DNA of 64,000 nt from Nemertoderma westbladi. Its lineage: Eukaryota > Animalia > Xenacoelomorpha. Of the stretch, positions 23,142 to 63,131 are shown piece by piece (the stretch's first letter is position 1; the number at the start of each line of letters is the position of its first letter). The DNA is taken from positions 62,001 to 126,000 of the forward strand of contig JAUCBJ010007635.1 of the NCBI GenBank assembly GCA_032718475.1. The letters run 5' to 3'. Under the pieces are notes generated by a model. That model did not search any database. It was not told the DNA's origin and saw only the letters and a program-made list of their open reading frames with translations. The translations under genes were made by a program, and so were the position numbers.

Positions 23142-23810
23142 ATGGCAGAGGAATTTATCAAACTTAATAATGATATTCTGGCAATGTTAAGGAATATTAA
23201 AGGCAAGAAAAGCGTATCCAATGATGACGAACGGGCGATAGCTGATCTTCTCGCCTCCATGACAGCCAAACACATGACAGTTATAGACAAGCTGGCGGAA
23301 TCGCGAGATAAGCTAGCTGAAGCCCGCCAGGACTCAATCACTGCCAAGGACGAACTGATCCAACACCTGAAAGGCCCCCGCCCATCCACACCTGCCGCTG
23401 CAACTCCCACCATTGGTACCCACCAGCGCCTGCATTCGCAACCCTCAGTCTCTGCCACGGAACCCAGCTACAGTGCGGTAACTACCGGCTCCTCTCAACC
23501 TCCGGCACATCCTCCTTACCAACGGCCTCCTGCTGTTCGAGGATGTAAAGCGGGCGGCTCGCTACAAGTGGTCCAATCACAACCGTCACGACAGGCACAT
23601 ATTCACATCGGGCGACTTGATCCATCAGTAACTCAAGATGACATTAAGGAATACTTACGCAAAGGAGGTTTTAACTTTGAAGATGTTATAGCTATTACTC
23701 CACTTGCAGCCTCACCGTTTCAGTGTTTTCATGTGGTCTGCAGTCAGGACGATAGGGCCATCTTAATGGACCCAGAGACATGGGAAGATGGAATCAGTAT
23801 ACGGATGTGA
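23142..23810 (+). pseudogene. Non-LTR retrotransposon ORF1-like protein (coiled coil + RRM-like C-terminal domain), cut at its 3' end by the element A LTR
   Basis: Helical N-terminus, Pro/Ser linker, then HIHIGRLDPSVTQDDIKEYL...FQCFHVVC...LMDPETWEDGISIR, resembling the C-terminal domain of CR1/L2/Jockey-group ORF1 proteins. The stop codon comes from the LTR start (TGTGA at 23806-23810). No ORF2 follows. Confidence 0.6.
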
Positions 23811-24340
23811 CGGGATCCAAGAGGGATCCCGATTTATCCGGTTGTGGTAATTTAGTCCACGCGTCCCCGCCGTGTATAAGGATGAAATAAATGACTGAGT
23901 TCTGAAGTTCGGTGTATAATAGGATGTTATAAGATATAGATATTGTAAATGTGTACAAGGCGGGATACGGTAACTAAAGTCCCGTGATCCCCTATCTAAA
24001 CTAATTGGCTGTACCCTACGCTAGCACTGCTGCACTGTGATGACTGAATAGGTAATATTACTGCCAAGTGGCTATACTGCACGGTTGGCCTAATTACTAC
24101 CTAATCGATGCCTTGCCCCCCTCTGATTGGTTGTTACCCTTGTTGGCGCCCCGTGGAGTATTCCCGTTCACTCCACCTGTTCTCTGGGTTAGGGGTTTGG
24201 CCCCTGACCCTCCATTGTGTGCTTCCTTCCCATTCTTATTGGGATGGCGCGAGTTGGTTAATTACCCAATCTCGCGGCTCCCAATATTGCTTATCGGCTA
24301 ATAACTTTATGGGGTGTTGGCGGGATTGAATAAGCTAACA
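23806..24340 (-). repeat. 3' LTR of element A (535 bp)
   Basis: TGTGACGGGATCC...GAATAAGCTAACA; matches 37620-38157, with differences confined to about the first 240 bp on the + strand. Confidence 0.96.
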
Positions 24341-24350
24341 CTCCCCCCCA
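24341..24350 (-). promoter_or_regulatory. Polypurine tract of element A
   Basis: + strand CTCCCCCCCA reads TGGGGGGGAG on the minus strand, immediately before the 3' LTR start TGTTAGC. Confidence 0.85.
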
Positions 24351-25048
24351 TGCTATCTTCCCGGTAAGAAGATAGCATCAACCAAAAAAGTGCGCTACAA
24401 TCCCGCTGGATCCCGATCTAGTATCGGGTGTGGGGTGGAAATTCTTTTCTCTCGGGGTCGGCTTTCCAGGCCGCCCCCTATGGGTATGATATCGCTACCC
24501 TGTGTGCCTGGCGTCTCATGTCGGGCCGGTCGCGCTCACCTCCCACGCAACTTTTGTTTCCCCAACATTTTCGCCCTATCTCACCTTCACTCTCACCCTA
24601 ACTCTCTCATACCCCCGGACCTCCTCGTCCCTTACTCAGCCTCTTATTCTCCCCCCCCCACACTAGAATTGCGTTCGCACTCTCTCCGCACTTCACACTC
24701 TTATTCCGAATTCTCAAGTCCACTTTGACTGTTCTATCTCTCCTGACGAACCTCCCCCCCCTCTCGTGCCGCCGCACTCAAGAAGTGTGAAATTGTCAGT
24801 TGTCTCGTCCATAGTGCCATAGTCATTGTCCCCCAGTCCCAGTAGCTAATTGAGAAAGGTTGTATGACTATAGTACTTACTCCAAACGTATGTATTTTAC
24901 TGCTAATCACTACGTACGTACATACGAATTGCACTTATATAGTTATTTGCATTAATTAAATTTATACTTAATAGTTCGTACGTTACATGCGGCGCCTTCC
25001 AGGCGCACCACGTCCCAGTCTCAGTCCCATTCCCTCTCCTCCGGGAAC

Positions 25049-27592
25049 TTATCTGTTCCTCCTCACGTCCTCTTCCCTGGCCCGTTTCTTGGTTATCACC
25101 GCTCCTCTGGCATCATCCGCTTTCTGTTTCCGGACCTTTGCTGCCACTTCCTTGCTGATCCCGGTCGTCGGCTCCTTGGGCGCTGGTGTTATTAAAGCCC
25201 GATACCGCTTCGCCGGTGGCCCCTCAGAATGGCCTGGTTGTCTCCCTCGTGTGGCGTCCCATAGGATCATCTTCATTGCCTTTGGTACGTGTTCCGCCAA
25301 GAAATCCCTAAACTCCCTCCGGTTCTCTGGTGTCCACCTGTCCAGGTACCGTTGCGTGTTCATAACTCCGGCGAACGATGCCGCCGTAGCTACCTCTTGA
25401 TAGGTAAACGGTAACCTTCGCTTTATGATTTCCATGTGGGTCTCCTGGTTTATGAGGAAGAAACCCCACTTGAACTCTTGGGCCTTCATGCGCTGGCGCG
25501 TCATAGCCCCGACGTCGGCCCACTCCTCGAACCTCGTGAACTTCTCCTCGTCGCTCATCCAGTCGCACTCGCGTCCGTAGTGTCCCCGAAAGTGGCACTT
25601 TGGACATCGGTTATGCAACCGTGGACACGCCCCCATCCTGTGACTTGGTTCTCTACAATAGAGACAAAAGGTTCCCCGTTGGAACCGGTATAGGCAGCTG
25701 CTTTCCCGATGGGTCTGTCTCCCACAGTAGTCGCAGCCGAGTACCAATGTCTCGCGTCCCACCTCGTCCTTCGTCCCAATCGATCTCCGCGGTCTGTGGA
25801 GTCGCTGGTAGGCGAACTTCTCTACGTTGCTCTCCCTGTTTACGTCTATCTCTCCGCCCCTCTCGGGCATCGTCTCCCCGAATACTATCCGTGGTGCCGT
25901 CCCCGGTTGCTCGCCCAACCTGATGGTGCTCCCCGCGAAATCCATCGCCGGCCCCTCGTGCACCCAGGTCCGCTTGCCGGATCTGTTCCAGAAGGCCCTT
26001 GCCCCACTGGCCGTCACCACCCTTCCGCCAACCCAGTCTGTGTCCGAGTGGCCTATCCTTTCGATGGGCGGTATCTCTCCGAACTCGTCGTCGTCGTCCT
26101 CCTCTTCTGGTAGTGTCTCCAATCCCGGTATCCCGATGGATCCACTATGTCCCTTCCCGCCTTGGCTCTCGCCCGTAGCTCTCCATCCCTCTAGCTCCCT
26201 TAACTTCCTTGGCGGTTGGTCGCCCTCGGCGCCCGCTGGTATGGGCGTCGTTTGCAACCCCGACGTCGACTGTTTCGGCGATCCCACCGTCCATCCCAAT
26301 TCTCGTCCTAGAGACTCCCCCGAACTCCCTGACGAAGTCCAATGAAGTTCGTCTAGGCCCGCCTGTTCCTCGAAGCCGTAACTCTGTGCCCTGGCTTCCT
26401 CTTCCCTCTCCTCTGCTTCTATCCTCTCCCGTCTAGCGACTTCTTCCAGTCGCTTTGCTTCCCGTCTATCCATCTCTAGCTGCTCCCATCTCTGATACGG
26501 TGTATCTGTCTCCCCATCTACCAGATGTCGGCTGTTGTAGTACACCGACTCGCCCTTCAGCCCCGGGTGGTCTACCAGACCGTCAAAGGCCGTCTTAAAG
26601 GCTCTCCTGTAGCTTAGGGGTGATCCCGATAGCAGAAATGCCCCTGGTTCTCTTTCGATAACTACGGTCATGAATAAGTTAAGTAAACTTATCATCATCC
26701 AGTCCTCCTGCAGGATATATCGCTTCTGATATACCTTTATCGCTCCTCTGCGAAACTGATATACCTCCTGCTTTCCCGGTCTCGCTCCCCACTTCAGCGA
26801 GTTCGCTAGTTCTGCTCCGTATTCTTCCCTAAACTTCCCCCAATCCATTGGTTTGTGGCATACGAGCCCCAATAATTGGCCCATCGCCACCGCCCCGCAT
26901 TGGCCTGGGTTCTCGACCACCCCCAATCCATCCGGTGCCGTCATAGCCATAAAGACTTTCTGCATATCCAGGAGGTTGGTGGCGTCCGGACCGATGATCC
27001 TCTCCGCGTCCTCGCGAATCGCCGATCCCACTTTCGTCGTCGACTTCTCTCTTACTAAGACTTGTACCGCTTTCGGCAGTCGGTCTAATTTCGGCCCGTC
27101 CTTCTTCCCATACGTCCCTAGGTCGAATAAGAAGATGTCCCCATTTGGCGCTGCCAAATGCAAGAGTATGGTCCTGGCCGACCCTGCCGTTCCTCGTCTC
27201 GAACCCGCTTCGTCTTCCACGGTTCCCTCGTCATCTAGGATCATATATCCTCCTCTGTTGACGGACTCTATGAATCTTTTCCAGTCCTTCCTCGGCGATT
27301 CCCTCGGATACTTCGGAATCCCGAACTTCGCCTCGTCTCCTTTCACTACGTAGTGGAAGTGTTGGAAGATCGCGTTGTCCAGCGACGGCGTCCCGTAGGT
27401 CCCAACCAACCGCTGTTCGTGCGCCTCCCGGAAGTGATCCTGCAGCGCTCGTGCCGCGTGACCCCTTTCCAACCTCTCGTAGTATCCTCTCGTCTTCTCC
27501 TCCGGGTGTCTTTCGGTGAAATCCACCAATATTTCTTTTCCTCCTGACTCCGCTTTTCTCTTCCTGATCAGCTTGCTCGCCATTCCGAACAC
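25049..27592 (-). CDS. Accessory protein of element A: DEDD-type 3'-5' exonuclease domain + acidic linker + three CCHC-like zinc knuckles (first ATG at 27583)
   Basis: ExoI MILDDEG, ILLHLA..GDIFLFDL, LPKAVQVLV, ExoII KVGSAIRED, LLDMQ, ExoIII-like QKRYILQED. Knuckles CDYCGRQTHRESSC, CLYCREPSHRMGAC, CPKCHFRGHYGREC. 847-codon uninterrupted frame, same strand as pol. Confidence 0.85.
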   Translation of the reverse strand: MFGMASKLIRKRKAESGGKEILVDFTERHPEEKTRGYYERLERGHAARALQDHFREAHEQRLVGTYGTPSLDNAIFQHFHYVVKGDEAKFGIPKYPRESPRKDWKRFIESVNRGGYMILDDEGTVEDEAGSRRGTAGSARTILLHLAAPNGDIFLFDLGTYGKKDGPKLDRLPKAVQVLVREKSTTKVGSAIREDAERIIGPDATNLLDMQKVFMAMTAPDGLGVVENPGQCGAVAMGQLLGLVCHKPMDWGKFREEYGAELANSLKWGARPGKQEVYQFRRGAIKVYQKRYILQEDWMMISLLNLFMTVVIEREPGAFLLSGSPLSYRRAFKTAFDGLVDHPGLKGESVYYNSRHLVDGETDTPYQRWEQLEMDRREAKRLEEVARRERIEAEEREEEARAQSYGFEEQAGLDELHWTSSGSSGESLGRELGWTVGSPKQSTSGLQTTPIPAGAEGDQPPRKLRELEGWRATGESQGGKGHSGSIGIPGLETLPEEEDDDDEFGEIPPIERIGHSDTDWVGGRVVTASGARAFWNRSGKRTWVHEGPAMDFAGSTIRLGEQPGTAPRIVFGETMPERGGEIDVNRESNVEKFAYQRLHRPRRSIGTKDEVGRETLVLGCDYCGRQTHRESSCLYRFQRGTFCLYCREPSHRMGACPRLHNRCPKCHFRGHYGRECDWMSDEEKFTRFEEWADVGAMTRQRMKAQEFKWGFFLINQETHMEIIKRRLPFTYQEVATAASFAGVMNTQRYLDRWTPENRREFRDFLAEHVPKAMKMILWDATRGRQPGHSEGPPAKRYRALITPAPKEPTTGISKEVAAKVRKQKADDARGAVITKKRAREEDVRRNR

Positions 27593-28089
27593 TACACTCG
27601 CTCACCTGTAGGGTGGTGCCTTACCAAGGCGCAATACAGATGAGTGATGTACTAAGATGTTTCCTACAGTTCGATAATGGCCTGCTTTTCTACTTAACTG
27701 CGCCTTTCAAGCCTAATTTAATTTAATTAATTTCGGAGCTAGTAAATCAGCCTAATTTACGATTTCTGTCCGTTACTTTTATTATGTTCTAGAACGACTT
27801 TCCTTGTGTTACCACTATTTTCGATTTTAGCCCTATTCTATTTATTTATTTATTTTTCTTTGGTTCTACTGTCCTGCTACTTACTACTGCCTATGGGTTT
27901 ATTCTGTTCTCTCTCTGATCCCTATTCTGGCCTACTCAGTGGGCCTATGCAGTACAGCAGTATGCGTCGTGTGGCCACACGATTTATCCAGCTGCACTCA
28001 TATGCCCCCCTCTCGCTACTAACTCTACTTACTCCTAACTAATATCTATATCTTATTTTACCCCCTTTTGCCTCTTACTCTCTCTCTCT

Positions 28090-28926
28090 AACTAGTGGTA
28101 CTACGTACCCTCTAACTCTAACTCTATCGGTACTACCTACCCTCTAACTCTAACTCTAACTAGGCATTACGTACCCTCTAACTCTAACTCTAACTAGGTA
28201 CTACGTACCTACTAACTCTCTAACTATCGGTACTACGTACCCTCTGACTCTAACTCTAGGTACTACGTACCTACTAACTCTAACTCTAACTAGGTACTAC
28301 GTACCTACTAACCCTAACTCTCGGCACTACCTACCCTCTAACTCTATCTAGGCATTACGTACCCTCTAACTCTAACTAGGTACTACGTACCTATTAACTC
28401 TCTAACTATCGGTACTACGTACCCTCTGACTCTAACTCTAGGTACTACGTACCTACTAACTCTAACTCTAATTAGGTACCACGTACCTACTAACCCTAAC
28501 TCTCGGCACTACCTACCCTCTAACTCTATCTAGGCATTACGTACCCTCTAACTCTAACTAGGTACTACGTACCTATTAACTCTCTAACTATCGGTACTAC
28601 GTACCCTCTGACTCTAACTCTAGGTACTACGTACCTACTAACTCTAACTCTAATTAGGTACCACGTACCTACTAACCCTAACTCTCGGCACTACCTACCT
28701 CCTAACTCTATCTAGGCATTACGTACCCTCTAACTCTAACTAGGTACTACGTACCTACTAACTAACTAACTCTAGGTACTGCGTACCTGCTAACTAACTG
28801 ACTCTAGGTACTACGTACCTACTAACTAACTATCGGTACTACGTACCTACTAACTAACTAACTCTAGGTACTACGTACCTACTAACTAACTAACTCTAGG
28901 TACTACGTACCTACTAACTAACTAAC
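28090..28926. repeat. Composite minisatellite between pol and the accessory ORF of element A
   Basis: Many copies of GGTACTACGTACC separated by CTCTAA/CTAA runs, with a higher-order period of about 180 bp (28381-28560 matches 28561-28740); a T-rich tract follows at about 28927-28962. Confidence 0.9.
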
Positions 28927-29042
28927 TTTTATTTATTTTTTTTTTTTTATTTTATTTTATTTGTGTGGGAAGGGCGTCTCGCCCTCAATCCCACCCCCCT
29001 CAGTCCAAAACTTGGACGACTAAACTTCACACTAACTCTAAT

Positions 29043-32000
29043 TTAAGGTGCCCCTTCTAGAAGACAGCATTTACCTACTGCTCTCCTGTAGGTTTTTCTG
29101 TCTTTCGCACCTATCTTTCCACCTATCCGCACTTCTACCGATCGGACTCTTCCGTCCTCGTCGGAGTAGGTGCCTACAACTCTCGCCAACCGCCATTGGT
29201 TGTTGATGATAGTATCATCCGTGACGATTACGAGATCTCCCTCTCTCAACTCCCTGTTTGGCTTCCTCCAATTGCTTCGCTTATGGAGCGTGGGTAGGTA
29301 TTCTTCTACCCACCTCCTCCAATACTCTGTGCTAATTGCTTTAGCTACTTTCCAACTTTGCCGGGAGTGTATATCATCTGGGTCTACACCCCGCATATCT
29401 ATGGTCGCTGGCCTTTCCATCAGGAAATGGCTAGGCGTCAACACGTCTAGTGACTCAGGGTCATCATTCTCCGGGTATAGCGGTCTGCTATTAATGATCC
29501 CCTCGCACTTTGCAAGTACCGTCCGTAAGACGTCTTCAGTGACCATGTGGGTATTCATCAGTTTCGTCATTAGACGTTTCGAACTGCCCACCAGTCTTTC
29601 GACGCATCCTAGTGTATGTGGTGCATACGGCGTCCGTCTCTCCCACTTCACTTGTCGTCTTCTCATGGCCGCCCTGACTTCTTCTCCCTCCAAGATGTTT
29701 AAGGCCTCTGCCATCTCACTCTCTGCACCCACAAAGTTGGTGCCGTTGTCGCTATATATCACTGCGATCGTCCCACCTTTGCGGTCCCTAAACCTTTCTA
29801 AGGCGTTAATGAAGGCTGATGCGGTTGCATCTTGGGCGAGTTCTATCCCTACCGCCCGCGTATTGTTGCATACGAAGATAATACCGTAGCGTTTCTCCGT
29901 GTGTCGCATCACCTTGATCTTTATCGGCCCGAACATGTCCACACCGCAATGTGTAAATGGCGGGTCGTGCTGTCTTACCCTACTCGCCGGTAGTGGCGCC
30001 ATCTCCTGTACGGCTCGTTCCTTCTTCGCTCGTCGGCAGGTCTGGCACTGCCCCACTACCGCTTTGACCTTCTTCCTTAGTTGTTTGACCCAATAGGTCC
30101 TCCTTATCTCTGTGAGGGTTCGGTTGGTGCCCCCATGCAGTATCGATTTGTGGGAGTCCCATATGATCTGGTGGACTATAGGCGATCCTGTGGGAATGAT
30201 GATGGGTTTCGGTGGCACGACTATACTGTTGTTATATCCCACCCTTGAATTCATTACTAGGATCCCATCCTCGTTGAGTTGTGGTGACAGCGTGATCAAC
30301 TCGCTATCCCGTCGGAGATGTTGTTGGTTACCGACACGTTCCACCTCGTCGCCATAGTTCTTGCGTTGTTCATAGCGGATCACTGCCTTGGCCGCTCCTT
30401 CCAGATCTATGGTTGTCCTGGCCTTCTTGTCCTTGCCGACTCCCGCAAGGAAATTCCCAAAGGCTCTCCAGTACGCCACTAGTTTCTTGGTCTTATACCA
30501 ACTAGAACTGTAGCTGAGGAGTTTATCCGTTGGGTTATCGCACAGTTCCCTTCCTGGTTGCACGTCCCTGATCTCCCTCACCATCTGGGAGTATATCTCT
30601 TCTCCCTCTGAATCTCCTTCTCCTTCTGATATTGGTTCCGAGCCCGGGTCCACCTTCCTCATCGGCGGCCAGGCCTCTCTATCGCTCAGAAATTGTGGCC
30701 CATGTTGCCACAATACTTCCTTCTTCAGGAAAGTGTGGCGTTCCACGCCCCTCGACAGTAAGTCCGCTGGGTTCTCATCTGTTGGGCAGTAGTGCCACCT
30801 TTCCAGTTCTGTGCTCGCCCTTATTTCGTCCACTCTATTCGCGACGAATATCGGGTATCTCGTCTTTTCGTTGTGTAGCCAACCAAGCACTACCATGGAG
30901 TCCGTCCAGTAGTGTGTCTCCACTATGTTGGGAATTGTATCCACTAGGTAGGCTGTGGCTCTAACTCCTAGTCTCGCAGCTGTCAATTCTAACTTGGGAA
31001 CAGATGCTGAATCTGGCGGCGTTGACTTAGCTTTGCTAAAGGCTAGTCTGGGCTTGTGAGGCCCCTCTCGTTGTACTAAATAGAGTGCCGCTCCGTATGC
31101 CTCTAACGACGCGTCGGAGAACATATGTAGGTCCAGATTCGTCATGTTCCCGTCCGGGAAATACACTCGCGGCATGTTGTATGTTCCCATCCTCTCCAAG
31201 TCTCCTGTCCATTTGCTCCACTGTTTCTTAATGTCTTCAGGTACCTCTACGTCCCACTCATCCTTCAACTTATATACTCTCTTGAGTATCTGTTTCCCCG
31301 TGACTAGTAATGGGGATGCTAGGCCTAAGGGATCGTATATCCTTGCTATATACGATACGTAACCCCTCTTCGTATGGGTGTCTGCACCCTCCTGGCTCAG
31401 CTGATACTTCAGTTCGTCTGTTTTCCTATCCCATACGATTCCCAACGCCTTCTGCTGGGATTCCGTTCTCTTAATCGCCATGTCCTGCCCTTTGGCTGTT
31501 GTAGGGTTGTCCATGGTCGATTCTGGTTTCTTGTCCTCTATTTCCCTGATAAATTCTTCTGAACTGGATTGGAATTTGGTCAGGTTGAAGCCGGATCCTC
31601 TCAGGATGTCGCGAACCTCGCGCCCTGTTTCCAGTATTTCCTCAACCGTATTTCCAGACTCCATGCCGTCGTCTACGTAGAAACCGCGTTTGATCATGTC
31701 GACGGCCCTACTGCTATATCTATCCTCCTTCCCCTTTACCGTGTCTCTCACTGCCATAGTCGTCGTAAATGAGGACGACTTGGCCCCCATGTTTTGTACT
31801 ACCATCTTATATGTCGGTATTATAGGCGGTTCTTCTTCTCCGTTATACCATAAGAAGCGTTGACTGTCGCTATCTTCCTCTGTTACTCGGACTTGGTTGA
31901 ACATGCCTTCTATGTCACACGTGAAGGCGTGTTTCCCATTCCTAAATCTAAGTAGTACTTCTATGCCCGAATTGTATATGTTTGGGCCCTCTAGTAGGTA

Positions 32001-37541: not shown

Positions 37542-37610
37542 CTCGTCTGCTCGGTGGAGTTCGACTAGCTAGCGTGGGGTTCTTTGAGTTTAACTAGGGC
37601 GGCAGCTCGG

Positions 37611-37619
37611 TTTAGTTAC
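37611..37619 (-). promoter_or_regulatory. Non-tRNA primer-binding position of element A (GTAACTAAA), complementary to an LTR-internal 9-mer
   Basis: Minus strand reads ...GTCACA|GTAACTAAACCG with no TGG. On the same strand the LTR contains TTTAGTTAC (37794-37786; also 23978-23970). Confidence 0.6.
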
Positions 37620-38157: not shown

Positions 38158-38377
38158 ATTGCGCCTATGGCGTTTTTTCGGTTATGTCTATTTTTCGAGC
38201 CCACGGCTCATGGACGAAATAGCGGAACATACCAGGGACCTTAGAATCGCGGTATCCAGCCGCTGTGAAAATTTCATCAAAATCGTTAGAGTAGTTTTGG
38301 CTATAGATTAACCAGCCAGTCAATCAATCAATCAGCCAACAATTCTTACAGTAATGAACCTCTCGGTTCCTAACTAG
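38158..38377 (+). mobile_element. Short non-autonomous Helitron-like repeat, copy 1 (5' part lost at the element A junction)
   Basis: Near-identical to 38466-38695. Contains TGTGAAAATTTCATCAAAATCG, a (CAGC/CAAT)n microsatellite, a hairpin GAACC-TCTC-GGTTC, then CTAACTAG. Confidence 0.6.
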
Positions 38378-49832: not shown

Positions 49833-50258
49833 TGTCATGACAACCAATATGTGACGTCATACAATATTGCGGTGGACGGGTGTTGTAATTAATTTAATAT
49901 CATTTAAATTGTTAACCGTGCACAATGTGTCGTCACCCTTATGTAATACTGTTTGTATAGTGACAACTCCACATTCTGTACACCACAACATTCAATATCA
50001 GACCGTTAATTAACAATTAATTAAGGTCATGTTGATGCCTATGTGAATACTACAGATAAAAAGGCTTTGCCAGGTTTGGCAGAATGCACTCACTATCTTC
50101 CAAGCTCTGTCACTGTACATACAGTAGGGGCTTATTTACATGTTTAGTACAGTAGATTATTCTTAAGTTAATATAATCAATTAAAGTCATCTTTCAATTC
50201 ACTTTCAATTCATGGAGAGCGGCAATAACTTGGGCTTACTTACGCTACTTCTATGACA
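49833..50258 (+). repeat. 5' LTR of element C
   Basis: Identical by eye to 56553-56978. Confidence 0.97.
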
Positions 50259-50276
50259 TGGCGCCCGATAAGGGGA
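50259..50276 (+). promoter_or_regulatory. tRNA primer-binding site of element C (tRNA-Lys-like)
   Basis: TGGCGCCCGATAAGGGGA directly after the LTR; resembles the tRNA-Lys PBS TGGCGCCCGAACAGGGAC. Confidence 0.85.
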
Positions 50277-50491
50277 ATCCGACAACATCCAACAAAAATA
50301 AATCCGGGTGAGTTCTTCAATTTAAATCACACCGCTGCTCTGTCATTTATTATTCATATCAACTTACCTGAGTATCTCTGTCTACAGTACCAGTACGTTA
50401 CAAGTAGGGTACTGGCAATCCAACTTCGAACGGTTTCTGTCTCCTTCTCTTTTCATTCAACCAGGGTTCTCCCACCGCGACCAATAACCGT

Positions 50492-53400: not shown

Positions 53401-56173
53401 CATGGATGACCTTGTATCCGGCGCAAAAGATTTTGATACAGCATTTTCATTGTACAAAATTGCCAAATCGTCTATGTCCGAAGGAGGTTTTGATTTAAGA
53501 AAATGGGCGACAAATTGCGTAAAGTTACAAACCATCATTGATGAAATCGAAACACCACAAATATTCCCCATGGACGTTAACTCAGTCCCTGTATTAACGG
53601 AAGAGGACACAACTTACGCAAAAGAATCCCTAATGTTACCAAACCCTGATGGCAAGGCAACTAGAGTGTTGGGTCAAATTTGGAATACATCCACGGATTG
53701 CTTAGGTTACAATCTGGATCATATTCACGAGAGTATTGCAACACTAAAACCTACCCGCAAGTCTCTGCTGAAACTCATAGCTCGAATCTATGATCCTCTC
53801 GGATTATTGTCGCCGTGGTTGGCACCATTAAAAATAGCATTCAGAGAAATTACCCAAGCAAAGTCTTTAAATTGGGACTCACCACTTTCTGACAAAGTGA
53901 CATCACAATGGCAAAAATGGGTCTCTGATTTACTAGTATTGAATAATGTCACTGTCCCACGTTGCATTATAGGCCCACAGGAACCAACACAGTATGAATT
54001 GCATATGTTTGCAGATGCAAGTTTACATTTGTACGCTGCAGCTATTTACATTAGAATAACCTATGAAGATTCCACAATTACCTGTCACTTAATAACAAGC
54101 AAGTCTAAACAAGCACCAAAAGATGGTTGCTCTACTCCCCGCAAAGAACTTCTAGGTGCATTTATAGGGGTCCGTTTACTAAGAAACGTGGCAGCAAATA
54201 TTGCGCTCAAAATATCACATAGCTATTGTTGGACAGATGCAATTGATGTCCTTTATTGGGTTAAATCACCTGATCCAAGCAGATACGGTCAATTTGTTCA
54301 TAACAGGTTGAAAGTAATTTTAGAATTAACAAAGGCCACAGATTCAATTTGGCGTCACTGCCCAGGAGTTTTAAACCCAGCAGATTTACCAACGCGTGGC
54401 ATGTCTGCAGTTAATTTAGTTAGAAGCAAACATTGGTTTCAAGGACCACCCTTCCTGTTGGATGAGGAGTCCAAATGGCCCACATCACCTGTGATACGGG
54501 AATCACGTGTGTCACGTGACTGTTTAAAAGAATTTAAGTCAACCCCAATTGCTGCATTAGCTGTCACAGTGTCAAACAAGGAAGAGTTTAATGTAATAAA
54601 TGTTGAGAAATTTAGCAGCAAACAGTCCCTTCTACGTATCATGGCCTGGATTCTTAGATTCAGTAATAATTTAAAAATAAGAACTTTTACCCAGAAAGGG
54701 TGTGACAAGCAGCTGTTATTACTTCCTTATATTACAGCACTCGAATTACAACAAGCAGAAGTACTCATATTATATAAAGCCCAGATGTCCGCCTACCCTT
54801 GTGCTTTCGAATATTTGCATAAAAGGTCAACCTCTTGCCCAAATATTGTGAAACAGCTCAATCTGAAGATTAACAATAATGGCCTGCTTGTGTGCCAAGG
54901 CCGTGTTGCAAATGAATTAATTCCCTTACACACGCAAAACCCTATATTGCTACCACCAGACTCGCACTACACTCGTCTAGTCATTCTTAATTCGCACGAG
55001 CGTGTTTTGCATGCCAGAGTCAGAGATACACTTGTGGATGTTCGAGAACGCTATTGGATCCCAAGTGGGCGGCGGGTTGTCAAACAAATGATTTCTTCTT
55101 GTTTTCAATGTAAACGAATCCAAGGAAAGCCCTTTACGAAACCAGAAGTAAGTCCATTGCCACATCCAAGAACTACTCAATCGTCAAGTCCTTTTGAAGC
55201 AATTGGCGTGGATTTCGCAGGTCCTTTAAAAGTGATTTCAAAACCACATGATGCTGACCAAACAACAGGAAAAATGTGGCTCTCACTCTTCACCTGTGCA
55301 GCTACTCGAGCAATTCATCTAGAGTTAGTTGGTTCACTAACAGCCATTTCGTTTATGAATTGTTTCAGACGGTTTATAGCCAGAAGAGGTATCCCATCCC
55401 TCATTTACAGTGATAACGCAACTAATTTCAAAAAGTCTGCTAAAGAACTTAGAGTCTATCGCGCATTTCTACAAGATCCCGAGGTAGTTAGACTTTTTGG
55501 TGATCTCAATATTCAATGGGAGTACAATGTTGCACGCAACCCATCAGCTTTTGGTTTCATTGAACGCCTCGTAGGCACAGTAAAAACAGCCGTTTATAAA
55601 GTCATAGGAAGGGCTGTTCTGACGGCTGATGAACTCCATAGTGTTATTTTAAGCGTAGAAGCGGCTATTAATAGCCGACCAATCACGTACGTGTATTCTA
55701 AACTTGACGATGATATTCGTCCACTTTCGCCAAGTTATTTCCTTGTTGGCAAACGACTTTGTGCTTTGCCTGATACAAGCGTAAAGGGAACTTTACCAAA
55801 TCCAAATTCAAAGATCAAAAGATCGAACATATTAGATAGACATGGTTACTTAGAGAAAGCACGGAATGCTTTCTGGAAGGCCTGGCGTACAGATTATCTT
55901 CGAGAATTAAGAAGTTTCCATATCGCAAACAATCTACCCCCTCACACTGCCCTATCTCCCAAAGTTGGCGACGTCTGTTTATTACACAATGAATCACTTC
56001 CGCGATGTCTATGGAAACTTTGCCGTATAACAGACTTGATTGTTTCCAAAGACGGCCGAATCCGTTCCGCTAGAATCACGATTGCCCCTCGGAATCGGGA
56101 AGCAAAGAATTTAATTCGCTCCATTGGTCAACTTTACCCTTTAGAAATATTAGATGATGCAGAAAACAACTAG
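50492..56173 (+). CDS. BEL/Pao Gag-Pol polyprotein (1893 aa)
   Basis: Gag LPKLSPPTYSGN; three knuckles CAFCNERHFSNSC, CTKCLANGHMANQC, CHFCQSPSHNSAIC; protease LFDNSAQRSFI; RT ADIKQAF...LYMDDLV; RNase H LHMFADAS...LNPADLPTRG; integrase GVDFAGP, YSDNATNF, GFIERLV. Confidence 0.97.
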   Translation: MMSEGNDDDALNLIKEKRIRGVVRGKVTRLLKHVDLTSHLTDLTTWIDDLTDLRKRLDEADLTVGSFMDEEDMEEDLETQDEYQVKIHNCLSQLKQTVSAPSGLSQNLNTSTFPRTNPIYNSTNQNTSLSFLHSGVEGRVLARSMLPKLSPPTYSGNLLQYKGWHEAFKTAVDDADLPEITKFQYLKQSLRGDALDTIGGLAINGTNYAIGLKLLEDRYGNPDQIIAAHIEQMRLAGKTQPSLRKVYDHCLTHSRALEALGVAMLEYQRTVVPDIIRAIPSGMAEEMVLKNGGRIGDLQWLLDELGKYVTAKEAIRNAINPTTSAATSQQIPAPSPQNNPPQKHTRPNTPTVSNFTVATKQAPNKHKYRLAAQQGQAPSDSRVIQSAIKIPTCAFCNERHFSNSCTYITEPSSRRRVLNEKSRCTKCLANGHMANQCSSTKLCHFCQSPSHNSAICPNSRRMLSGNSNTIPPVPVSAVACESNANAVSSMITPVKQINQDTTLQTATIQAFDKSNNMFMINTLFDNSAQRSFISKAICDVWNLPVVASETLIAKGFLGKGNPKVSNVEQRHDLVELKLKLRNNKVATINVLVTDAICEPINNSVPANMISESRKFKHLPLANPNVSSTDPFDVELLIGADLYWSLVTGNILRDHGNSLVAIESCFGYLLNGPVCNNFQTTFQVNNNDKPDPIISASLLVHSNQPSQCVSVNNTETQILTLLQNFWSLESIGISPKDTAPEIDLKIEFIDGIYQVALPWIRDVSSLPHHYGRCVAQLKTLLIKLINTDSLHSYDDVFQEHFRNGYIEKVDINNSENTLIHYIPHRGIIRENHGTTKLRIVFNASAIDRNIGISLNDCLPSGPNQLPLIFDILLRLRTYRIALVADIKQAFMQCGIKQRDRDLLRFLWVKDINNVDPHNPDIVIYRYTRAMFGLTVCPYVLGDIIKSHLKGKLPKVTNAMHSAIDKLLQDLYMDDLVSGAKDFDTAFSLYKIAKSSMSEGGFDLRKWATNCVKLQTIIDEIETPQIFPMDVNSVPVLTEEDTTYAKESLMLPNPDGKATRVLGQIWNTSTDCLGYNLDHIHESIATLKPTRKSLLKLIARIYDPLGLLSPWLAPLKIAFREITQAKSLNWDSPLSDKVTSQWQKWVSDLLVLNNVTVPRCIIGPQEPTQYELHMFADASLHLYAAAIYIRITYEDSTITCHLITSKSKQAPKDGCSTPRKELLGAFIGVRLLRNVAANIALKISHSYCWTDAIDVLYWVKSPDPSRYGQFVHNRLKVILELTKATDSIWRHCPGVLNPADLPTRGMSAVNLVRSKHWFQGPPFLLDEESKWPTSPVIRESRVSRDCLKEFKSTPIAALAVTVSNKEEFNVINVEKFSSKQSLLRIMAWILRFSNNLKIRTFTQKGCDKQLLLLPYITALELQQAEVLILYKAQMSAYPCAFEYLHKRSTSCPNIVKQLNLKINNNGLLVCQGRVANELIPLHTQNPILLPPDSHYTRLVILNSHERVLHARVRDTLVDVRERYWIPSGRRVVKQMISSCFQCKRIQGKPFTKPEVSPLPHPRTTQSSSPFEAIGVDFAGPLKVISKPHDADQTTGKMWLSLFTCAATRAIHLELVGSLTAISFMNCFRRFIARRGIPSLIYSDNATNFKKSAKELRVYRAFLQDPEVVRLFGDLNIQWEYNVARNPSAFGFIERLVGTVKTAVYKVIGRAVLTADELHSVILSVEAAINSRPITYVYSKLDDDIRPLSPSYFLVGKRLCALPDTSVKGTLPNPNSKIKRSNILDRHGYLEKARNAFWKAWRTDYLRELRSFHIANNLPPHTALSPKVGDVCLLHNESLPRCLWKLCRITDLIVSKDGRIRSARITIAPRNREAKNLIRSIGQLYPLEILDDAENN

Positions 56174-56543
56174 ACTGATAATTAAATGGAACTATTATCA
56201 TATTCTCCAATCACATAGAACAAGTCAAACTTAATCCCAGAACAGTAACAGTACAATTATAAAAGTGTCTCATTGATTGTTTCCTTTTTTGATTGTTAGC
56301 ATGTATAATTATTTATATATTCCTTTTTCGAATGTTTATATCTATATGTCTTTATCTTATATATATACGTATTTATCTTACCCTTAACCCTATTAGGTTA
56401 ATATCAATTTGACCTACTGTGTGCAATAAATACCTCAATTATTTTTGAATTTAAAGCATAAATACAGTAGTTGGTATTGTATTCATAATTAGACGGTGTT
56501 ATGTAAAAGTTGTCATTGAAAATAATGCAAAACATTATCTTTC

Positions 56544-56552
56544 AAGGGGGAC
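56544..56552 (+). promoter_or_regulatory. Polypurine tract of element C
   Basis: AAGGGGGAC immediately before the 3' LTR. Confidence 0.8.
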
Positions 56553-56978
56553 TGTCATGACAACCAATATGTGACGTCATACAATATTGCGGTGGACGGG
56601 TGTTGTAATTAATTTAATATCATTTAAATTGTTAACCGTGCACAATGTGTCGTCACCCTTATGTAATACTGTTTGTATAGTGACAACTCCACATTCTGTA
56701 CACCACAACATTCAATATCAGACCGTTAATTAACAATTAATTAAGGTCATGTTGATGCCTATGTGAATACTACAGATAAAAAGGCTTTGCCAGGTTTGGC
56801 AGAATGCACTCACTATCTTCCAAGCTCTGTCACTGTACATACAGTAGGGGCTTATTTACATGTTTAGTACAGTAGATTATTCTTAAGTTAATATAATCAA
56901 TTAAAGTCATCTTTCAATTCACTTTCAATTCATGGAGAGCGGCAATAACTTGGGCTTACTTACGCTACTTCTATGACA
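56553..56978 (+). repeat. 3' LTR of element C
   Basis: TGTCATGAC...CTATGACA followed by TSD AGAAC. Confidence 0.97.
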
Positions 56979-57577
56979 AGAACATTGACTATTAAAGAAT
57001 ACTATTAAATAACATCCCAGATCTGTATGCATTGGAATTACTCTAATTCTACCGCTAGCTTTGCATAATGTCACCATAGCAACAACCACGCTAGAATTAG
57101 AATTGAGTTAAAAGAACAATAGAAAGCTTGTCCCATTGAATAGCATAGGGAATAAATAGCGCACTACTAGTATCCAAGGATACATAATAATACAGTGACA
57201 TTCTGGAAGGCATTGACTAACGGACAAGTGACCCGAGTGTGTAATTTGTGACAAGTTGTGTGTGTGGTATTTGTGAGTTTATAGGCGAATGTTACTACTA
57301 AGGTGTGTTTACAGTAGCTAGTCGCAATCGTGAAAGTAACCTAACTCTCCAACGAATACCTGAAGTACATCTAAGCCTTTGGGACGGACAGTGGAGTGAC
57401 TTGTGTCGGTTATCGTTGTAGTTGTACGGCTACGTCGTTGGCGAAAGTACAGCTACAGCGGTACATCGGCGCTGAGAATCTCTTACTGTCCGGGGGCGAG
57501 GGAGAAATAGGCAGCGACGCCCGCTCGCCTAACGATATATAAACTCATTATAATATTGGTGAACTCTTATAGCAGAT

Positions 57578-60500
57578 ATGACTGAATTAATAGAAGATGA
57601 TCTTGGTATCAGGGAGAGATATACTCTACCTTTACAAGCATTTGTCGATAGCTTGATACGCGGCGACGCAGATCCAACTACTACGGAGGACGATGGTCGT
57701 TATATCGAACCGCCAATGTCCCAGGAGCAACTTACGCGTGAATTGGATTATAGAAAGTTCACTGCTCGCTACACGCATCGTAATGGTACGTATATGGACT
57801 TCTTGACCACTGGTCATCCTATTGATTTACACGACACTGACGATGTAGACACCGAAAGGGAAATGGTTTTGTTTAAATATCATGCCCAGCGGAGTCGAAA
57901 CGATAAATCGAGAATAGAACACGAGAACTCTATTCGAAACAAACTCGAAAGAGAAGACGTTGAAGAACCTGATAAACGTAACGGTTTCAACGATTATCTA
58001 GAATTCTTACGAGAGACCTATCTCAATGTTGCTAGTCAACAAAACCTCGAAACTCGATATCCCCAAGGTATACATCCAGATCCTATAATGGAACTCAAAC
58101 GGCTCTATTTTACGATGATGTATCTTACCGCCGATCGACCACTCCCTGTCGTTCCAGATACCTTCGAACAGATGGAGGAATATTGTAAAACTGGAGAGCG
58201 ATCACCCGCGTTTCCCCTTCAAGACGTGCGTCTTTGGTATTACTGTGACGAATGCCCTAGACCTAACCAGCAAATCGAAAGGCATAAACATCCTCGGAGA
58301 CGTTGCGCTAAACACAGTTTTACGCGATATACTTATGGGAGTTTCGAGCGTAACCTTTTCGGCGTATCGCCTACGGTCGCACGCCTTAAGCGATCATTGA
58401 ATAAACCCATGATCAGAGTTCCGGAATACTCGGTCAGACCTCCCCATTCACAAGTGATACCTCAAACTCTAGATCCTAATAGTATTACGGATCCTCCCGA
58501 ACTGTACTCACTGTTCAAAGATCTAGTGTTACCTGAACAGCTGATTGGTGGCACTCCGGTAGTGGGTTCGTTGGATATTCGCCAACCTTACCTCGCTGGA
58601 CTAGGACGCGGTCATTTAATATCACCGTTTAACCCCTACAACCGTCCTGGTCTTCCTCCGATCCAACCTGTTACAGAAGTCGAAGAGAGCGTGATACGAA
58701 ATGCATTGGACGCTATTCGGCAGAAAATCGGGAAAGGAACTTACGATTGCTTGGAGAAACGTAAATTGCAACAACAAGTCCAAGCGGTGAAAGAACTAGC
58801 TTTACCCCAGTTCGATAGAGAAATACAAAATCTAGAGGAGGACATCGAATGTGGACGAACCTACTCTTTACAGGAATTCCTGGACGAGCGCTTGCAGCAA
58901 CAAGCGGAGGAAAATCAGCTCGAGGAGAGACATATAGAGCTGACTGAGAGGGAGGAAGCAGCTTTAGCCCAACCAGAAGCTCAAATTCTCGTAACGGATC
59001 TCTATTCCAAAACGATTCTTCACCCCTCGATGGTTCCTCATTTTAAAGACAAGCTCTTTGCTACAGTACAGCCTCAACCGGTTAATACTGATCTCAGATC
59101 TCACGAGCTCGTTGCTGACGCTCCCATGCTACAACGTCCACCCGTAGAGGCTGCCCGTGTCGATGGCGTACTTGTTGAGCCTCCGGACAATAGAGCGGAT
59201 CTTGTCCGTCGCATGGTGCACGATGTTAACATACGCGCCAGACCTTTGCCGGACTCGTTTTATGGAATTAAGGATCATCCTTATTACGTCAATTTAAAGC
59301 AATATTACATGGTGAAACCAGAAGATCCTACGCATAGTCTGAAGTTTCTACCATTGATCAATCCTCTCGACCTTGTTGAACTCGAACAACTACAAAAACA
59401 CCTAGATCAACTAGTTAAAATAAACTCATTTAGAAAACCGTATAATATTTCTAGAATAGAGAAAGAAATATCACCTCCGTATAATCTTGATGGCTTTATT
59501 AAAACTCGATTGGTGCACTGGAATCTTGACGTGTTATTCGAAGAAGAAAGAATAAAACGATATGGCGATGTGGAAACCTATACTACACAATGCTTAAAGT
59601 ATGGAGATTTACCCAATGCTAACGAGTGCGCTACTTTGTGGCATCCAGTGGGAATGACTCTCGAAAACGCCACTAAAGAATGGAACGAGACTCTTAACGT
59701 TATCGAGATGTATGGCGTTGTTACTTACGACAACGAAGGTAGCGTTCCGGTGGGAGAATTAGGAACTACGCGAATGATACATATACGAGGACTCGCTGGT
59801 TCTACCCACGTATTCACTCGAGCGTGTTCTGACGTGATTGATTATTCTTTTGAAACTCTTACCGAGATACAAAAGAAACTTCGACATGGACAATTTGAAC
59901 TCGCGCAGCGTTACGTCACCGACACCGAACGCAAACCGGCCATGGGTATCGATGGATCAATGTTACCCCAACCTGTACTCGCAATGTTGTTTAACGAAAG
60001 AATTCTAAAAATTGGCTCAGCTGTTTATGGAGATCTCCAAAACGACTTCCGGAATATGGAGAACATTCCATACCCTTTCGTTGATACTCAGCTGATTGCT
60101 CCTTGGGCCGAAGGCCGAGGTTTCTTTCGCACTATGTATGCCAATACACCCAGCAGCATTACTAAAGTACAACGGACATCCATCGGACATCTTGCCTTTC
60201 AAGAATATGGTTGGAATTTCAAAGTTGGAAATCCTATAAATTACCAGCAAGTATATGGAGATCATTACTCTCGTTTATATTTTGATGGACCATTAACCGC
60301 GCCTGGTGCCGTATATAGCTTTATGAGTGTTCCACTTCGCCCTTCCTTAGCTATATACACGATCTTTGAGAACGCAGCACTTGCCGGTTGGCTAGCCGAT
60401 GTGTGCAGTCGTACCATACGCGCTCATCCCTTAATACTTGGAACTAAACTCGCCAAGTTAGACGAACACAATAAGTTTATACGTTTCGAATGTTTCCGGC

Positions 60501-61831
60501 GCTTTCTGACTCCGTTCCGTAACGTCGATAGTCAGTTCAAAGATCGCGCGCTGACCAAGCTCAGTCTTAGAGACTCAGCTGCGGAGAAACTGAGTAGCGC
60601 TGGATTTGCCGTGTTTCAAGACGTTTGTATACAGAACTCACATTCATCTGTTATACAAAGACCCCGAATACCTACAGGTTATTCTGTCGTGGAAATACAG
60701 ACAGTGGGTCCACTTACGGAAGCTGACGCACCCACTTCGTCTATGCAACTGGAGGATGAACCAGTATGCTTGGAATCAGAAGCGATTCAACCCACGGCTT
60801 CTCGTAGCAGTGACAATGATTATGTCATAGAGTGGTATCAAGGTCCACAGCGTCTCACAGCGTACGATTATCGACACGCCAACTACGTTTCCCGAAAACG
60901 TTGTCGATTATGCGCGTCGAGAGACCACTTCACTCCTCTCGATTCGAGCGTACCTTGTTCCTATTTCCTCGAACAACCGATGATGGAAATATATTGCGCT
61001 TATTGCCGGCTTAATAACTCTCATATATTTGCCGTCTGCCCACAATTTATGACTCAATGTCACTACTGCCAACTTAAAGGACACGAAAGTTACAATTGTC
61101 CCTTTAATCGCGATTTAGAGAGCGTAGGCGAGATGATCACCCTGAGATACATCCGAGCTTGGGAAGCGAACGCCGATTTACATTGCGAATCCCGACATCG
61201 CTATTACCCTGGACGAGCTTACGAGGGAGTTTACGCGTTCCATCCCTATCTATTCGCATCGATTGAACAGAAAACACGCGTACCAAGTTACGAGTTGATG
61301 AAGCGTGTTGGTGAGTGTATTTCCACCAAGTTTGTCAGGAAATACCTTAGAAACGTTAATCCTAATGATATAACCACATATCACCTGATCAATTTTATCC
61401 GTCAGGACCCTGAGTACGGCGACATTTTCGTGAACTCGCATCCTGAACTCCAGGAAGTATCTCGGCGCCCATATGAATATCGAACCCGAGAACGCGAGCT
61501 GGAGAGAACCATTAAACCGAGAAAGTTCCTCACCACTCACGGTCCACCCACCGCTAGTGTCCAGACGACCCGTCAAGGACCCGTAGGAGCTGCTGTCCTG
61601 AGACGCGCTCTAAAGGCCGTTAGACCTCACTCCACTGAGGTTGATATTAATCAACCAGGTACTTCGACCGGCGGGTATACCGATCGTAACCCTGCACCTT
61701 CTGATGCAATTATATTGCACCCTTCACCTAGGAGCTACAGCCCTCCTCGTAAAGTGGCTCGCCCCAAAGAGAAAATGACTCTTGCTAGCTTCAAGAAACT
61801 GCGTAAACGCCGTCCGCGCAAGAAAGACTAA
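57578..61831 (+). CDS. Accessory protein of element B: unknown N-terminal half + DEDD-type 3'-5' exonuclease + three CCHC-like zinc knuckles + basic tail
   Basis: ExoI VVTYDNEG, RMIHIRG, LPQPVLAMLF, ExoII KIGSAVYGD, FVDTQ, ExoIII-like AIYTIFEN. Knuckles CRLCASRDH...C, CAYCRLNNSHIFAVC, CHYCQLKGHESYNC. C-terminal KKLRKRRPRKKD. 1417 codons intact, ending about 80 bp before the 3' LTR. Confidence 0.85.
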   Translation: MTELIEDDLGIRERYTLPLQAFVDSLIRGDADPTTTEDDGRYIEPPMSQEQLTRELDYRKFTARYTHRNGTYMDFLTTGHPIDLHDTDDVDTEREMVLFKYHAQRSRNDKSRIEHENSIRNKLEREDVEEPDKRNGFNDYLEFLRETYLNVASQQNLETRYPQGIHPDPIMELKRLYFTMMYLTADRPLPVVPDTFEQMEEYCKTGERSPAFPLQDVRLWYYCDECPRPNQQIERHKHPRRRCAKHSFTRYTYGSFERNLFGVSPTVARLKRSLNKPMIRVPEYSVRPPHSQVIPQTLDPNSITDPPELYSLFKDLVLPEQLIGGTPVVGSLDIRQPYLAGLGRGHLISPFNPYNRPGLPPIQPVTEVEESVIRNALDAIRQKIGKGTYDCLEKRKLQQQVQAVKELALPQFDREIQNLEEDIECGRTYSLQEFLDERLQQQAEENQLEERHIELTEREEAALAQPEAQILVTDLYSKTILHPSMVPHFKDKLFATVQPQPVNTDLRSHELVADAPMLQRPPVEAARVDGVLVEPPDNRADLVRRMVHDVNIRARPLPDSFYGIKDHPYYVNLKQYYMVKPEDPTHSLKFLPLINPLDLVELEQLQKHLDQLVKINSFRKPYNISRIEKEISPPYNLDGFIKTRLVHWNLDVLFEEERIKRYGDVETYTTQCLKYGDLPNANECATLWHPVGMTLENATKEWNETLNVIEMYGVVTYDNEGSVPVGELGTTRMIHIRGLAGSTHVFTRACSDVIDYSFETLTEIQKKLRHGQFELAQRYVTDTERKPAMGIDGSMLPQPVLAMLFNERILKIGSAVYGDLQNDFRNMENIPYPFVDTQLIAPWAEGRGFFRTMYANTPSSITKVQRTSIGHLAFQEYGWNFKVGNPINYQQVYGDHYSRLYFDGPLTAPGAVYSFMSVPLRPSLAIYTIFENAALAGWLADVCSRTIRAHPLILGTKLAKLDEHNKFIRFECFRRFLTPFRNVDSQFKDRALTKLSLRDSAAEKLSSAGFAVFQDVCIQNSHSSVIQRPRIPTGYSVVEIQTVGPLTEADAPTSSMQLEDEPVCLESEAIQPTASRSSDNDYVIEWYQGPQRLTAYDYRHANYVSRKRCRLCASRDHFTPLDSSVPCSYFLEQPMMEIYCAYCRLNNSHIFAVCPQFMTQCHYCQLKGHESYNCPFNRDLESVGEMITLRYIRAWEANADLHCESRHRYYPGRAYEGVYAFHPYLFASIEQKTRVPSYELMKRVGECISTKFVRKYLRNVNPNDITTYHLINFIRQDPEYGDIFVNSHPELQEVSRRPYEYRTRERELERTIKPRKFLTTHGPPTASVQTTRQGPVGAAVLRRALKAVRPHSTEVDINQPGTSTGGYTDRNPAPSDAIILHPSPRSYSPPRKVARPKEKMTLASFKKLRKRRPRKKD

Positions 61832-61909
61832 CTGTTTAGAGTATCTTTAGGTTTTAGAAACTGTGATTTTTATATTTTATAGACTGAAAATCCCATTTTC
61901 TGGGAGCGG

Positions 61910-63131
61910 TGTAAAAGCCTTTGCTGAATTGCCCCGTTATTTTTATTATCTTTTACATTAAAATACTCTGTAGTTGATTTAATAAGTGTAAGAGACCGTA
62001 TTATTGCTGTATCAGTGTTTTTAGAGGATCTAAGACTTATTTCCTCCGTATGTGTACTGTGAAAGGTATATTTTATGATTCTATGGCAATTCGTGACGCA
62101 AAGGGGTGATAGCTACTCTTGAACAGTAGTTACTATGACTACGGTTAACAGCTGACATTCATACGTGTTGATTTCCTTTGTTCTACGGCGTCTCTCAGTT
62201 CAGTCAGCCAATGAGAGCGTTTTTGTGGCTCCTTGTAGAGAAAATTTCCGAGAAATGACGCAATGCCTATGTGCAGTGTTTACATTCAGTCCTGAGCCTA
62301 AGAGAGAACGGCTTGGAAGTATTTTTGTGCTATACTGTTTTTTAGTCGTACACTAGTAGGTTTAATTATAAAGGGCATATATCCTTTAACATGCCTATGT
62401 ATCATACATCCTGACTGCTGAAACATTGCAAACTCGTAACAATCAGTGTTCAGTTGTTGTTTTATACTGCTATTTACTGTCAGTTCTTCATAATATGGTT
62501 GATGAATTATTATATTTGGAATAACGATAAATAACCCCGCAACCCAATATTCTTGATATACCGAAGGTAAGAGAGAAAGGTTACCAATAACGATTGTGAC
62601 TTATGTTAAAGTGGTTTGAAGTGAATCTAATGTTATTTGATAGACCCTACATGAGTCAGCCTGTGTTCCTTTTATATGTGACTAAAATCAGTGAAGATTG
62701 GCAGATTAGTGTGCAGTATTGTGCAGCATTGTGTATGAGCGAGTCTGTTAAAGAAGCAATTCCTAAAGAATGCGCCATATATGTGAATTATAATTGAGCC
62801 ATATCGTTGTGAGTAGTTTAAGTCATAACTCTGTTTATATAGATAAAGCGCCACGTCCTAAAGGAACTGTTAATATTACCGAAGGTGAATAATATTGTCA
62901 GAGATTATATAATACTGTCAGTCGAATAATACATTAGGCTTACATAGCAATAAAAATTAAACCGTCGAACCCAATCTCCCGGGAATATCCAGCGGGTGAA
63001 TGGTCGCGCACGGATTGGTTTCGACTAGTGTAGTGAATCAAGTACTTGTCATAGACTAAAAAACAGATTTAATATCTAGAAGACATCTTAATTTGGTGGG
63101 TTAAACTGCCAAAGGTCTGAAAGCGCGAACA
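61910..63131 (+). repeat. 3' LTR of element B (1222 bp)
   Basis: Matches 40143-41374 apart from an 11-bp deletion near the end, a small indel near 62651 and a substitution at 62881. Confidence 0.97.

Follow-up and report, generated by a model that had tools for sequence, protein, structure and literature searches.

The 64,000-nt stretch of the Nemertoderma westbladi genome analyzed here (contig JAUCBJ010007635.1, positions 62,001 to 126,000; hereafter the window) was found to hold three BEL/Pao retrotransposons, namely element A on the minus strand, element B on the plus strand and element C nested inside B. All three possess long terminal repeats (LTRs) with TG..CA ends and a polypurine tract (PPT). 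BEL/Pao-type Gag and Pol domains in the order protease (PR), reverse transcriptase (RT), RNase H (RH) and integrase (IN) are complete in A and C, while those of B are limited to DUF1759, knuckles and PR, its RT, RNase H core and integrase being absent. A target site duplication (TSD) of 5 bp accompanies both B and C and is missing from A. Elements A and B carry in the env slot a third open reading frame (ORF3) with an exonuclease-type domain and three Cys/His knuckles, and neither has a primer binding site (PBS) for the 3′ end of a host tRNA: no TGG occurs within 60 nt after the LTR, whereas TGG begins at the first base in C. By their predicted proteins A and B stay BEL/Pao elements, deviating in the PBS from the description of the International Committee on Taxonomy of Viruses (ICTV). 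The explanation that we tentatively prefer is that these are two separable traits, an accessory gene that is likely not the maker of the primer and a self-complementary priming site used in the manner of Tf1. The features of A and B are as follows (window coordinates).

23806-38157, minus strand: element A, 14.4 kb; LTRs of 538 and 535 bp, 97% identical
37620-38157, minus strand: 5′ LTR of A, 538 bp, TG..CA
37786-37794, minus strand: LTR oligo of A, 9 nt, LTR positions 364-372, exact complement of the post-LTR site
37625-37645, minus strand: predicted 8-bp hairpin of A, U5-IR-like, ending 5 nt before the LTR end (fold prediction)
37611-37619, minus strand: post-LTR site of A in the PBS position, without TGG
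29043-37568, minus strand: gag-pol of A, one open frame of 2841 aa with DUF1759, PR, RT (YVDD), RNase H region (PF05380), IN and DUF5641
28991-29000, minus strand: G-rich PPT-like tract of A directly after the pol stop
28076-28930, minus strand: tandem array of A in the interval between pol and ORF3
25049-27601, minus strand: ORF3 of A, 850 aa, open; predicted DEDDy-fold domain (D123, E125, D198, Y295/E299) and three Cys/His knuckles (623-679)
24341-24349, minus strand: polypurine tract of A
23806-24340, minus strand: 3′ LTR of A, 535 bp, with a copy of the oligo at 23970-23978; the two element ends share no TSD
40143-63131, plus strand: element B; LTRs of 1232 and 1222 bp; TSD TAAGG
40143-41374, plus strand: 5′ LTR of B, 1232 bp; TATAAA at 40600-40605, AATAAA at 41181-41186
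40611-40622, plus strand: LTR oligo of B, 12 nt, LTR positions 469-480, exact complement of the post-LTR site
41375-41386, plus strand: post-LTR site of B in the PBS position, without TGG
43522-46878, plus strand: gag frame 1 of B (DUF1759)
46758-48767, plus strand: frame 2 of B, encoding a triple knuckle, a protease and a short segment that matches the end of the RNase H region
57563-61831, plus strand: ORF3 of B, 1422 aa, open; predicted DEDDy-fold domain (D723, E725, D824, Y932/E936) and three knuckles (1114-1179)
61910-63131, plus strand: 3′ LTR of B, 1222 bp, with a copy of the oligo at 62378-62389; TSD TAAGG at 40138-40142 and 63132-63136

An earlier, sequence-only reading of the locus had stated that A and B differ in LTR size (538 vs. 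1232 bp) and have divergent Gags, that both lack a TGG PBS and have instead a post-LTR sequence exactly complementary to their own LTR, and that the complementary oligo ends exactly opposite the first post-LTR base. All of these statements were confirmed, the Gag knuckles of A and B matching each other at an E-value of only 0.12. Complements anchored at the first post-LTR base were sought in the element's own LTR and compared with 5000 dinucleotide shuffles, giving lengths of 9 nt in A (16/5000 shuffles), 12 nt in B (3/5000) and 4 nt in C (2924/5000). Both A and B have their longest complement, among offsets from -12 to +39, at offset 0, and at -1 it shrinks to 5–6 nt; the duplex thus ends exactly at the LTR boundary in each. 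Of 7970 internal positions, five reach at least 9 nt against the LTR of A and two reach at least 12 nt against that of B. These counts support a self-complementary site that replaces the tRNA PBS in A and B, is exact in register and is not due to chance. When 37 non-host tRNA genes (from bins G001/G002) were compared, A and B showed at most 4–5 nt of complementarity, and C, with its TGG PBS, also only 6 nt, so that this comparison does not discriminate.

Element C had been put forward as an internal control, and its features are given below.

49833-56978, plus strand: nested element C; LTRs of 426 bp, 100% identical; TSD AGAAC
50259, plus strand: TGG PBS of C, with TGG at the first post-LTR base
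50408-56173, plus strand: gag-pol of C in one frame; ORF3 absent

The TGG PBS and the lack of ORF3 agree with that role, but C is a weak control since its Pol is only 27% identical to that of A.

RNA folding was consistent with use of the sites in priming. The predicted fold of A combines the oligo:PBS helix with an adjoining stem and the U5 hairpin 5 nt before the site. In B the oligo:PBS helix has a predicted probability of 0.74–0.96 if the RNA starts 0–10 nt before the oligo and of at most 0.10 if it starts 20 nt or more before it; stems are also predicted in U5. Transcription would start at or just before the LTR oligo, the 5′ end of the RNA would fold onto the post-LTR site, and the RNase H of the element would cut behind the oligo, freeing a 3′-OH. 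For B, which has no RT, RNase H would have to be supplied in trans. A and B are two good candidates for tRNA-independent self-priming in BEL/Pao.

The ORF3 proteins proved difficult to place by standard searches. Pfam gave no match for ORF3 of A or B, the exonuclease domain was missed by both Pfam and single-sequence PDB searches, and word-index protein searches with either ORF3 yielded no relatives. Nor was a relative found by Pol-based scans of viral and prokaryotic collections, and the knuckle motif was absent from viral contigs. A full HMMER search returned 18 matches, among them 12 full-length proteins with exonuclease region and knuckles, one knuckle-only fragment and four unrelated repeats or Gag knuckles. 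Direct similarity between the two ORF3s is significant in the knuckles only (E 4e-7; exonuclease part, E 0.12), and homology of their exonuclease domains follows from their both belonging to a shared family that links them (searched against 20 sequences, the B domain reached 6.5e-13 with P0129). The earlier claim of a homologous exonuclease and triple-knuckle ORF in both elements therefore stands directly for the open frames and the knuckles, and for the exonuclease only by way of this family.

The family conserves D-x-E, K-x-G...D and Y-x-x-x-D/E. It shows the DEDDy pattern of ExoI D-x-E, ExoII D and ExoIII Y-x-x-x-D, with a final E (Y-x-x-x-E) in both A and B. In the Atlas the ORF3 domains of A (0.94, 25/30 matches) and B (0.93, 24/30) led to PF01612 clusters, and the family profile matched EXD2 (4.8e-8), WRN (2.6e-7) and Egalitarian (4.6e-5). 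A structure model of the A domain reached a pLDDT of 70.8 (a single-sequence model reached only 31.7), and its top Foldseek matches were apPol exonuclease, T. brucei RNase D, Egalitarian and EXD2 (E 5e-5 to 1e-3). As modeled, the domain has a DnaQ-like fold, and motifs and model together support ORF3 as a DEDDy-fold exonuclease-type protein. Egalitarian is an inactive RNA binder of DEDD fold. By analogy with it and EXD1, ORF3 may serve as an RNA-binding accessory factor, in the handling of element RNA or in escape from small-RNA silencing, and would trim 3′ ends only where its active site is kept.

The active site is not kept throughout the family. One clade lacks the acidic residues of ExoI and ExoII and has long frames that are mostly open (L014, L019, L039, L043, L045, L046, L049, L050, L074, L081, and L092); judged by its residues it is likely a pseudo-nuclease, and its open frames indicate that catalysis is dispensable in one successful lineage. 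In another clade H replaces Y in ExoIII (H-x-x-x-D; L003, L004, L007, L008, L012, L022, L056, L089, and L091). Loci L020, L044, L084, and L147-L150 have either an exonuclease-knuckle ORF of 507 aa or only the knuckle, with no pol detected; they are flanked by inverted repeats or lie inside 20-kb repeated units, and possibly represent other types of mobile element.

The sequence-only reading had further proposed that the two traits form one system, with the exonuclease generating the primer, and had suggested scoring PBS type against the presence of the exonuclease gene. A knuckle-motif scan gave 12 loci from genome bins and at least 120 from metagenomes (26 of 64 metagenome parts scanned; flanks for 80), and 124 of 132 scanned loci matched the ORF3 profile. 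BEL/Pao RT-RNase H was found on the same strand at 33 ORF3 loci, including 30 of the 35 loci of at least 6 kb, and DUF5641 was present in all four further upstream ORFs examined. The LTR end and the leader before gag were readable at 28 of the 124 ORF3 loci; the remainder stop before the leader or show a 3′ LTR only, and L034, with a rearranged LTR, was left unscored. In 28/28 cases a TGG is found no more than a few bases from where the LTR appears to end. The PBS starts with TGGCGCC or TGGCAGCC in 26 of these leaders, which we take to be tRNA-Lys-like, and other TGG types are seen at L063 and L035. No further ORF3-linked leader came from the Gag-bearing contigs of G001/G002.

Sixteen of the 28 readable loci have the linear order PBS-gag-pol-ORF3. 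The 28 loci fall into 26, 21, and 10 groups at 90, 70, and 50% knuckle identity, and do not represent independent hosts because most stem from a handful of assemblies. No 9-nt anchored self-complement was found, over seven start positions, at any of the 14 TGG loci with about 800 nt of upstream sequence. The ExoI D-x-E is intact on the same contig at 11 TGG loci, another 11 belong to the clade lacking ExoI and ExoII, and ExoI is not shown at six. Elements can hence possess the exonuclease gene and keep tRNA priming. Ordinary TGG sites in exonuclease-bearing relatives are the outcome that the sequence-only reading had itself named as refuting its model, and the proposed coupling is not supported at the level of the family. 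Since all readable relatives with the gene keep a tRNA-type site, ORF3 is likely not what makes the primer. It is a widespread BEL/Pao accessory gene whose product likely binds or trims RNA.

An element-encoded tRNA-like primer was rejected as a general feature of the TGG relatives, as anchored complements reached only 4–9 nt over whole loci and relaxed ARAGORN searches returned noise. The C. elegans BEL element Cer7 has reportedly been proposed to encode its own tRNA-like primer. Short stretches presumed to be tRNA-Lys-like do lie between ORF3 and PPT at L079:930-950 and L088:4000-4012 (oriented) and are not general among relatives. The surveyed loci showed other features as well. In 21 of 26 locus Pols (L014, L025, L030, L038, L041, L043, L045, and others) the RT active-site motif lacks the aromatic residue of Y-x-D-D and reads T-L/I-V/I-D-D; these Pols belong to open, apparently young elements. 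L144:293-2062 (minus strand) and L145 are BEL/Pao loci with a 590-aa ORF in the ORF3 slot that by eye resembles a fusion glycoprotein and has no Pfam match. Bins G001/G002 (L003, L004, L007, L008, L010, L012, L140-L150) are labeled bacterial; their retrotransposon contigs are of eukaryotic type, nearly identical in the two bins and likely contamination.

Trees were built from 46 of 64 rows for ORF3 (17 near-copies and one poorly aligned row omitted) and, by a quick search, from 40 of 88 rows for RT-RNase H. In the former, A groups with P0121, P0127, and P0133 (95/88) and B forms a long, unplaced branch, the two not being sisters in the best tree. In the latter, A stands apart from the ORF3-bearing loci; a clade of A with 16 such loci was rejected (p-AU 0.009), but not after adding three Pols of unknown ORF3 state (p-AU 0.10). 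The nearest relatives of the A Pol are at most 37% identical to it. The Gag knuckles of B are closer to TGG elements (E 4e-16) than to A. This placement of A, together with the Gag knuckles of B, suggests that modules have been exchanged and that the self-complementary site arose separately in A and B.

Several observations weigh against the explanation by two separable traits. It is drawn from two elements, one without RT and IN and the other without a TSD. The duplex of A is just 9 bp, with a predicted pairing of 0 to 0.81 depending on the folding window chosen. In B the oligo is preceded by a TATAAA at a distance of just 11 nt; normal TATA spacing would put the RNA start about 8 nt after the oligo, leaving it in U3. 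In the survey, the leader comes after ORF3 at 12 of the 28 loci, on contigs that are permuted or collapsed, and its link to the same element is inferred. No TGG locus (0/28) falls within the Y-x-x-x-E ORF3 subgroup of A, whose comparison sequences (P0121, P0127, P0129, P0133, and P0135) are proteins without genomic context, and a clade joining the ORF3s of A and B was not rejected (p-AU 0.28). Such a clade, with Y-x-x-x-E and a lost TGG PBS occurring together in A and B, would suit a coupling limited to this subgroup, in which the exonuclease generates the primer by trimming the 3′ end of an LTR-derived RNA as far as the oligo:PBS duplex. The TATA spacing of B, which places the oligo at the U3 end and near the RNA 3′ end, would also suit it, as would the presence among the top fold matches of T. 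brucei RNase D, an exonuclease with a knuckle. However, the TGG PBS is kept in every readable family member, with or without catalytic residues, A and B are not sisters in the best ORF3 tree, and they differ in Gag. Moreover, if about 570 nt were trimmed back from the poly(A) signal of B, R would be lost, and the first strand transfer requires it. We consider such coupling improbable, and find it quite improbable that a Y-x-x-x-E exonuclease has been co-opted to trim its own LTR RNA at the PBS as a third primer-making route, using neither a tRNA nor an RNase H cut.

Less easily set aside, though still unlikely, is that the complement is a real RNA structure serving dimerisation, packaging or translation control, with the primer being an unrecognized host RNA such as a tRNA fragment. 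Half-tRNA primers are known in other superfamilies (PMC6317226) and a conserved hairpin replaces the PBS in fungal GalEa copia elements (PMC5445492). Both oligos also have local alternative hairpins, and that of B can pair locally with the TATA stretch. However, in A and B alike the duplex stops exactly at the LTR boundary, a register needed by a primer and not by a structural stem. A and B could also be rearranged copies that have lost a tRNA PBS, their complements being products of chance or local rearrangement. The complementary pair was noticed after the fact, B is without RT and IN, and A has 3% LTR divergence, with 16 differing positions that all lie between LTR positions 303 and 468. 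Its missing TSD and unlike flanks (one a dispersed repeat, the other an unrelated ORF) indicate that A may be a recombinant of two insertions. Against this stand the shuffle rates, obtained for two unrelated LTRs, and the fully open frames of A. The LTRs of B differ by only two substitutions and two indels, and these near-identical LTRs with the TSD argue that B was most likely copied with its present leader. B-like sequence, in many variant copies, covers all 30 bins in three of four sequence runs (contigs). Rearrangement of both elements seems to us improbable.

Other features of the window were recorded. The PPT-like tract of A directly after pol possibly marks an older element end, predating the addition of ORF3. 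An old tandem duplication in B (314 bp, 81%) spans the gag frame change (46462-47077), and the 2.1-kb leader of B contains a 287-bp duplication (87%) at 41653-42224. Of 1752 variant places among B-like copies, the 40 listed include neither the oligo nor the post-LTR site. Measured on copies of one dispersed repeat (38158-38180, 40120-40142, and 63132-63350), the 5′ end of A and the insertion point of B are offset by about 9 bp, in or beside a short palindrome, possibly reflecting a target preference. A 227-aa ORF adjoining the 3′ LTR of A (23127-23810) resembles by eye ORF1 of non-LTR elements, without Pfam support. A 45-bp satellite in about 470 or more copies occupies position 1 to about 23050.

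Neither an exonuclease accessory gene nor self-priming was found reported for BEL/Pao in a literature search, with most subscription papers and Repbase outside its scope, and the exonuclease-fold/triple-knuckle gene is apparently undescribed in this superfamily. With at least 124 loci, a large accessory-gene family occupies the BEL/Pao env slot. Its active-site-intact and dead forms allow a natural comparison of the role of DEDDy proteins in retroelements, a role left open for the rotifer ORFs (PMC5408684). Should A and B indeed self-prime, BEL/Pao would be the third LTR superfamily in which tRNA-independent priming has evolved, perhaps on two occasions within one host. A possible driver is escape from silencing by tRNA fragments at the PBS, which is described for mammals (PMC7472051).

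According to the ICTV profile of the Belpaoviridae, members use a host tRNA (Arg or Gly) as primer, measure 4.2–10 kb and have env as sole third gene (PMC8742986). The present elements share with them LTRs, PPT, DUF1759, PF05380, DUF5641 and the PR-RT-RH-IN order, whereas A is 14.4 kb long, lacks a tRNA PBS and carries an exonuclease ORF3. Self-priming is known for Tf1/sushi, Tj1 and Tcn1 in Ty3/gypsy and for TAR/Houba in copia (PMC7175516, PMC4600332, and PMC6317226). Tf1 RNA anneals to the PBS through its first 11 bases and is cut by RNase H behind base 11 (PMC7175516). A and B resemble Tf1 in a post-LTR site complementary to their own LTR (9–12 nt vs. 11) and, in A, in a predicted U5 hairpin. 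They differ in belonging to another superfamily and in an oligo that is only a putative RNA 5′ end, with the TATA position of B against it.

With the cellular DEDDy proteins EXD2, WRN exonuclease, T. brucei RNase D, Egalitarian, Nibbler, and EXD1, ORF3 has in common the predicted fold and the ExoI-III motifs. T. brucei RNase D likewise joins an exonuclease to a CCHC knuckle. ORF3 differs from these proteins in its low identity to them (11–18%), its three knuckles with a conserved helix and its location on an element. The closest parallel in retroelements comes from rotifers, where the lineages Juno and Vesta are presumably Ty3/gypsy. The sequence-only reading had mentioned DEDDy extra ORFs from bdelloid LTR elements, and these are indeed reported, for Juno/Vesta LTR elements and Terminons, in PMC5408684, which leaves their function open and describes EXD1 as an inactive DEDD-fold RNA binder. 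There, as here, a DEDDy-fold gene lies downstream of pol in the env slot, and the arrangement is common to distant retroelement lineages. The rotifer hosts are separate LTR lineages and Penelope-like elements, those here BEL/Pao elements. The rotifer motif is DEED (Juno/Vesta LTR or Athena elements), compared with DEDD or DEDE here; the fourth acid of D or E, the C-terminal triple knuckle and a catalytically dead clade distinguish the BEL/Pao ORF3 family from its rotifer counterparts.

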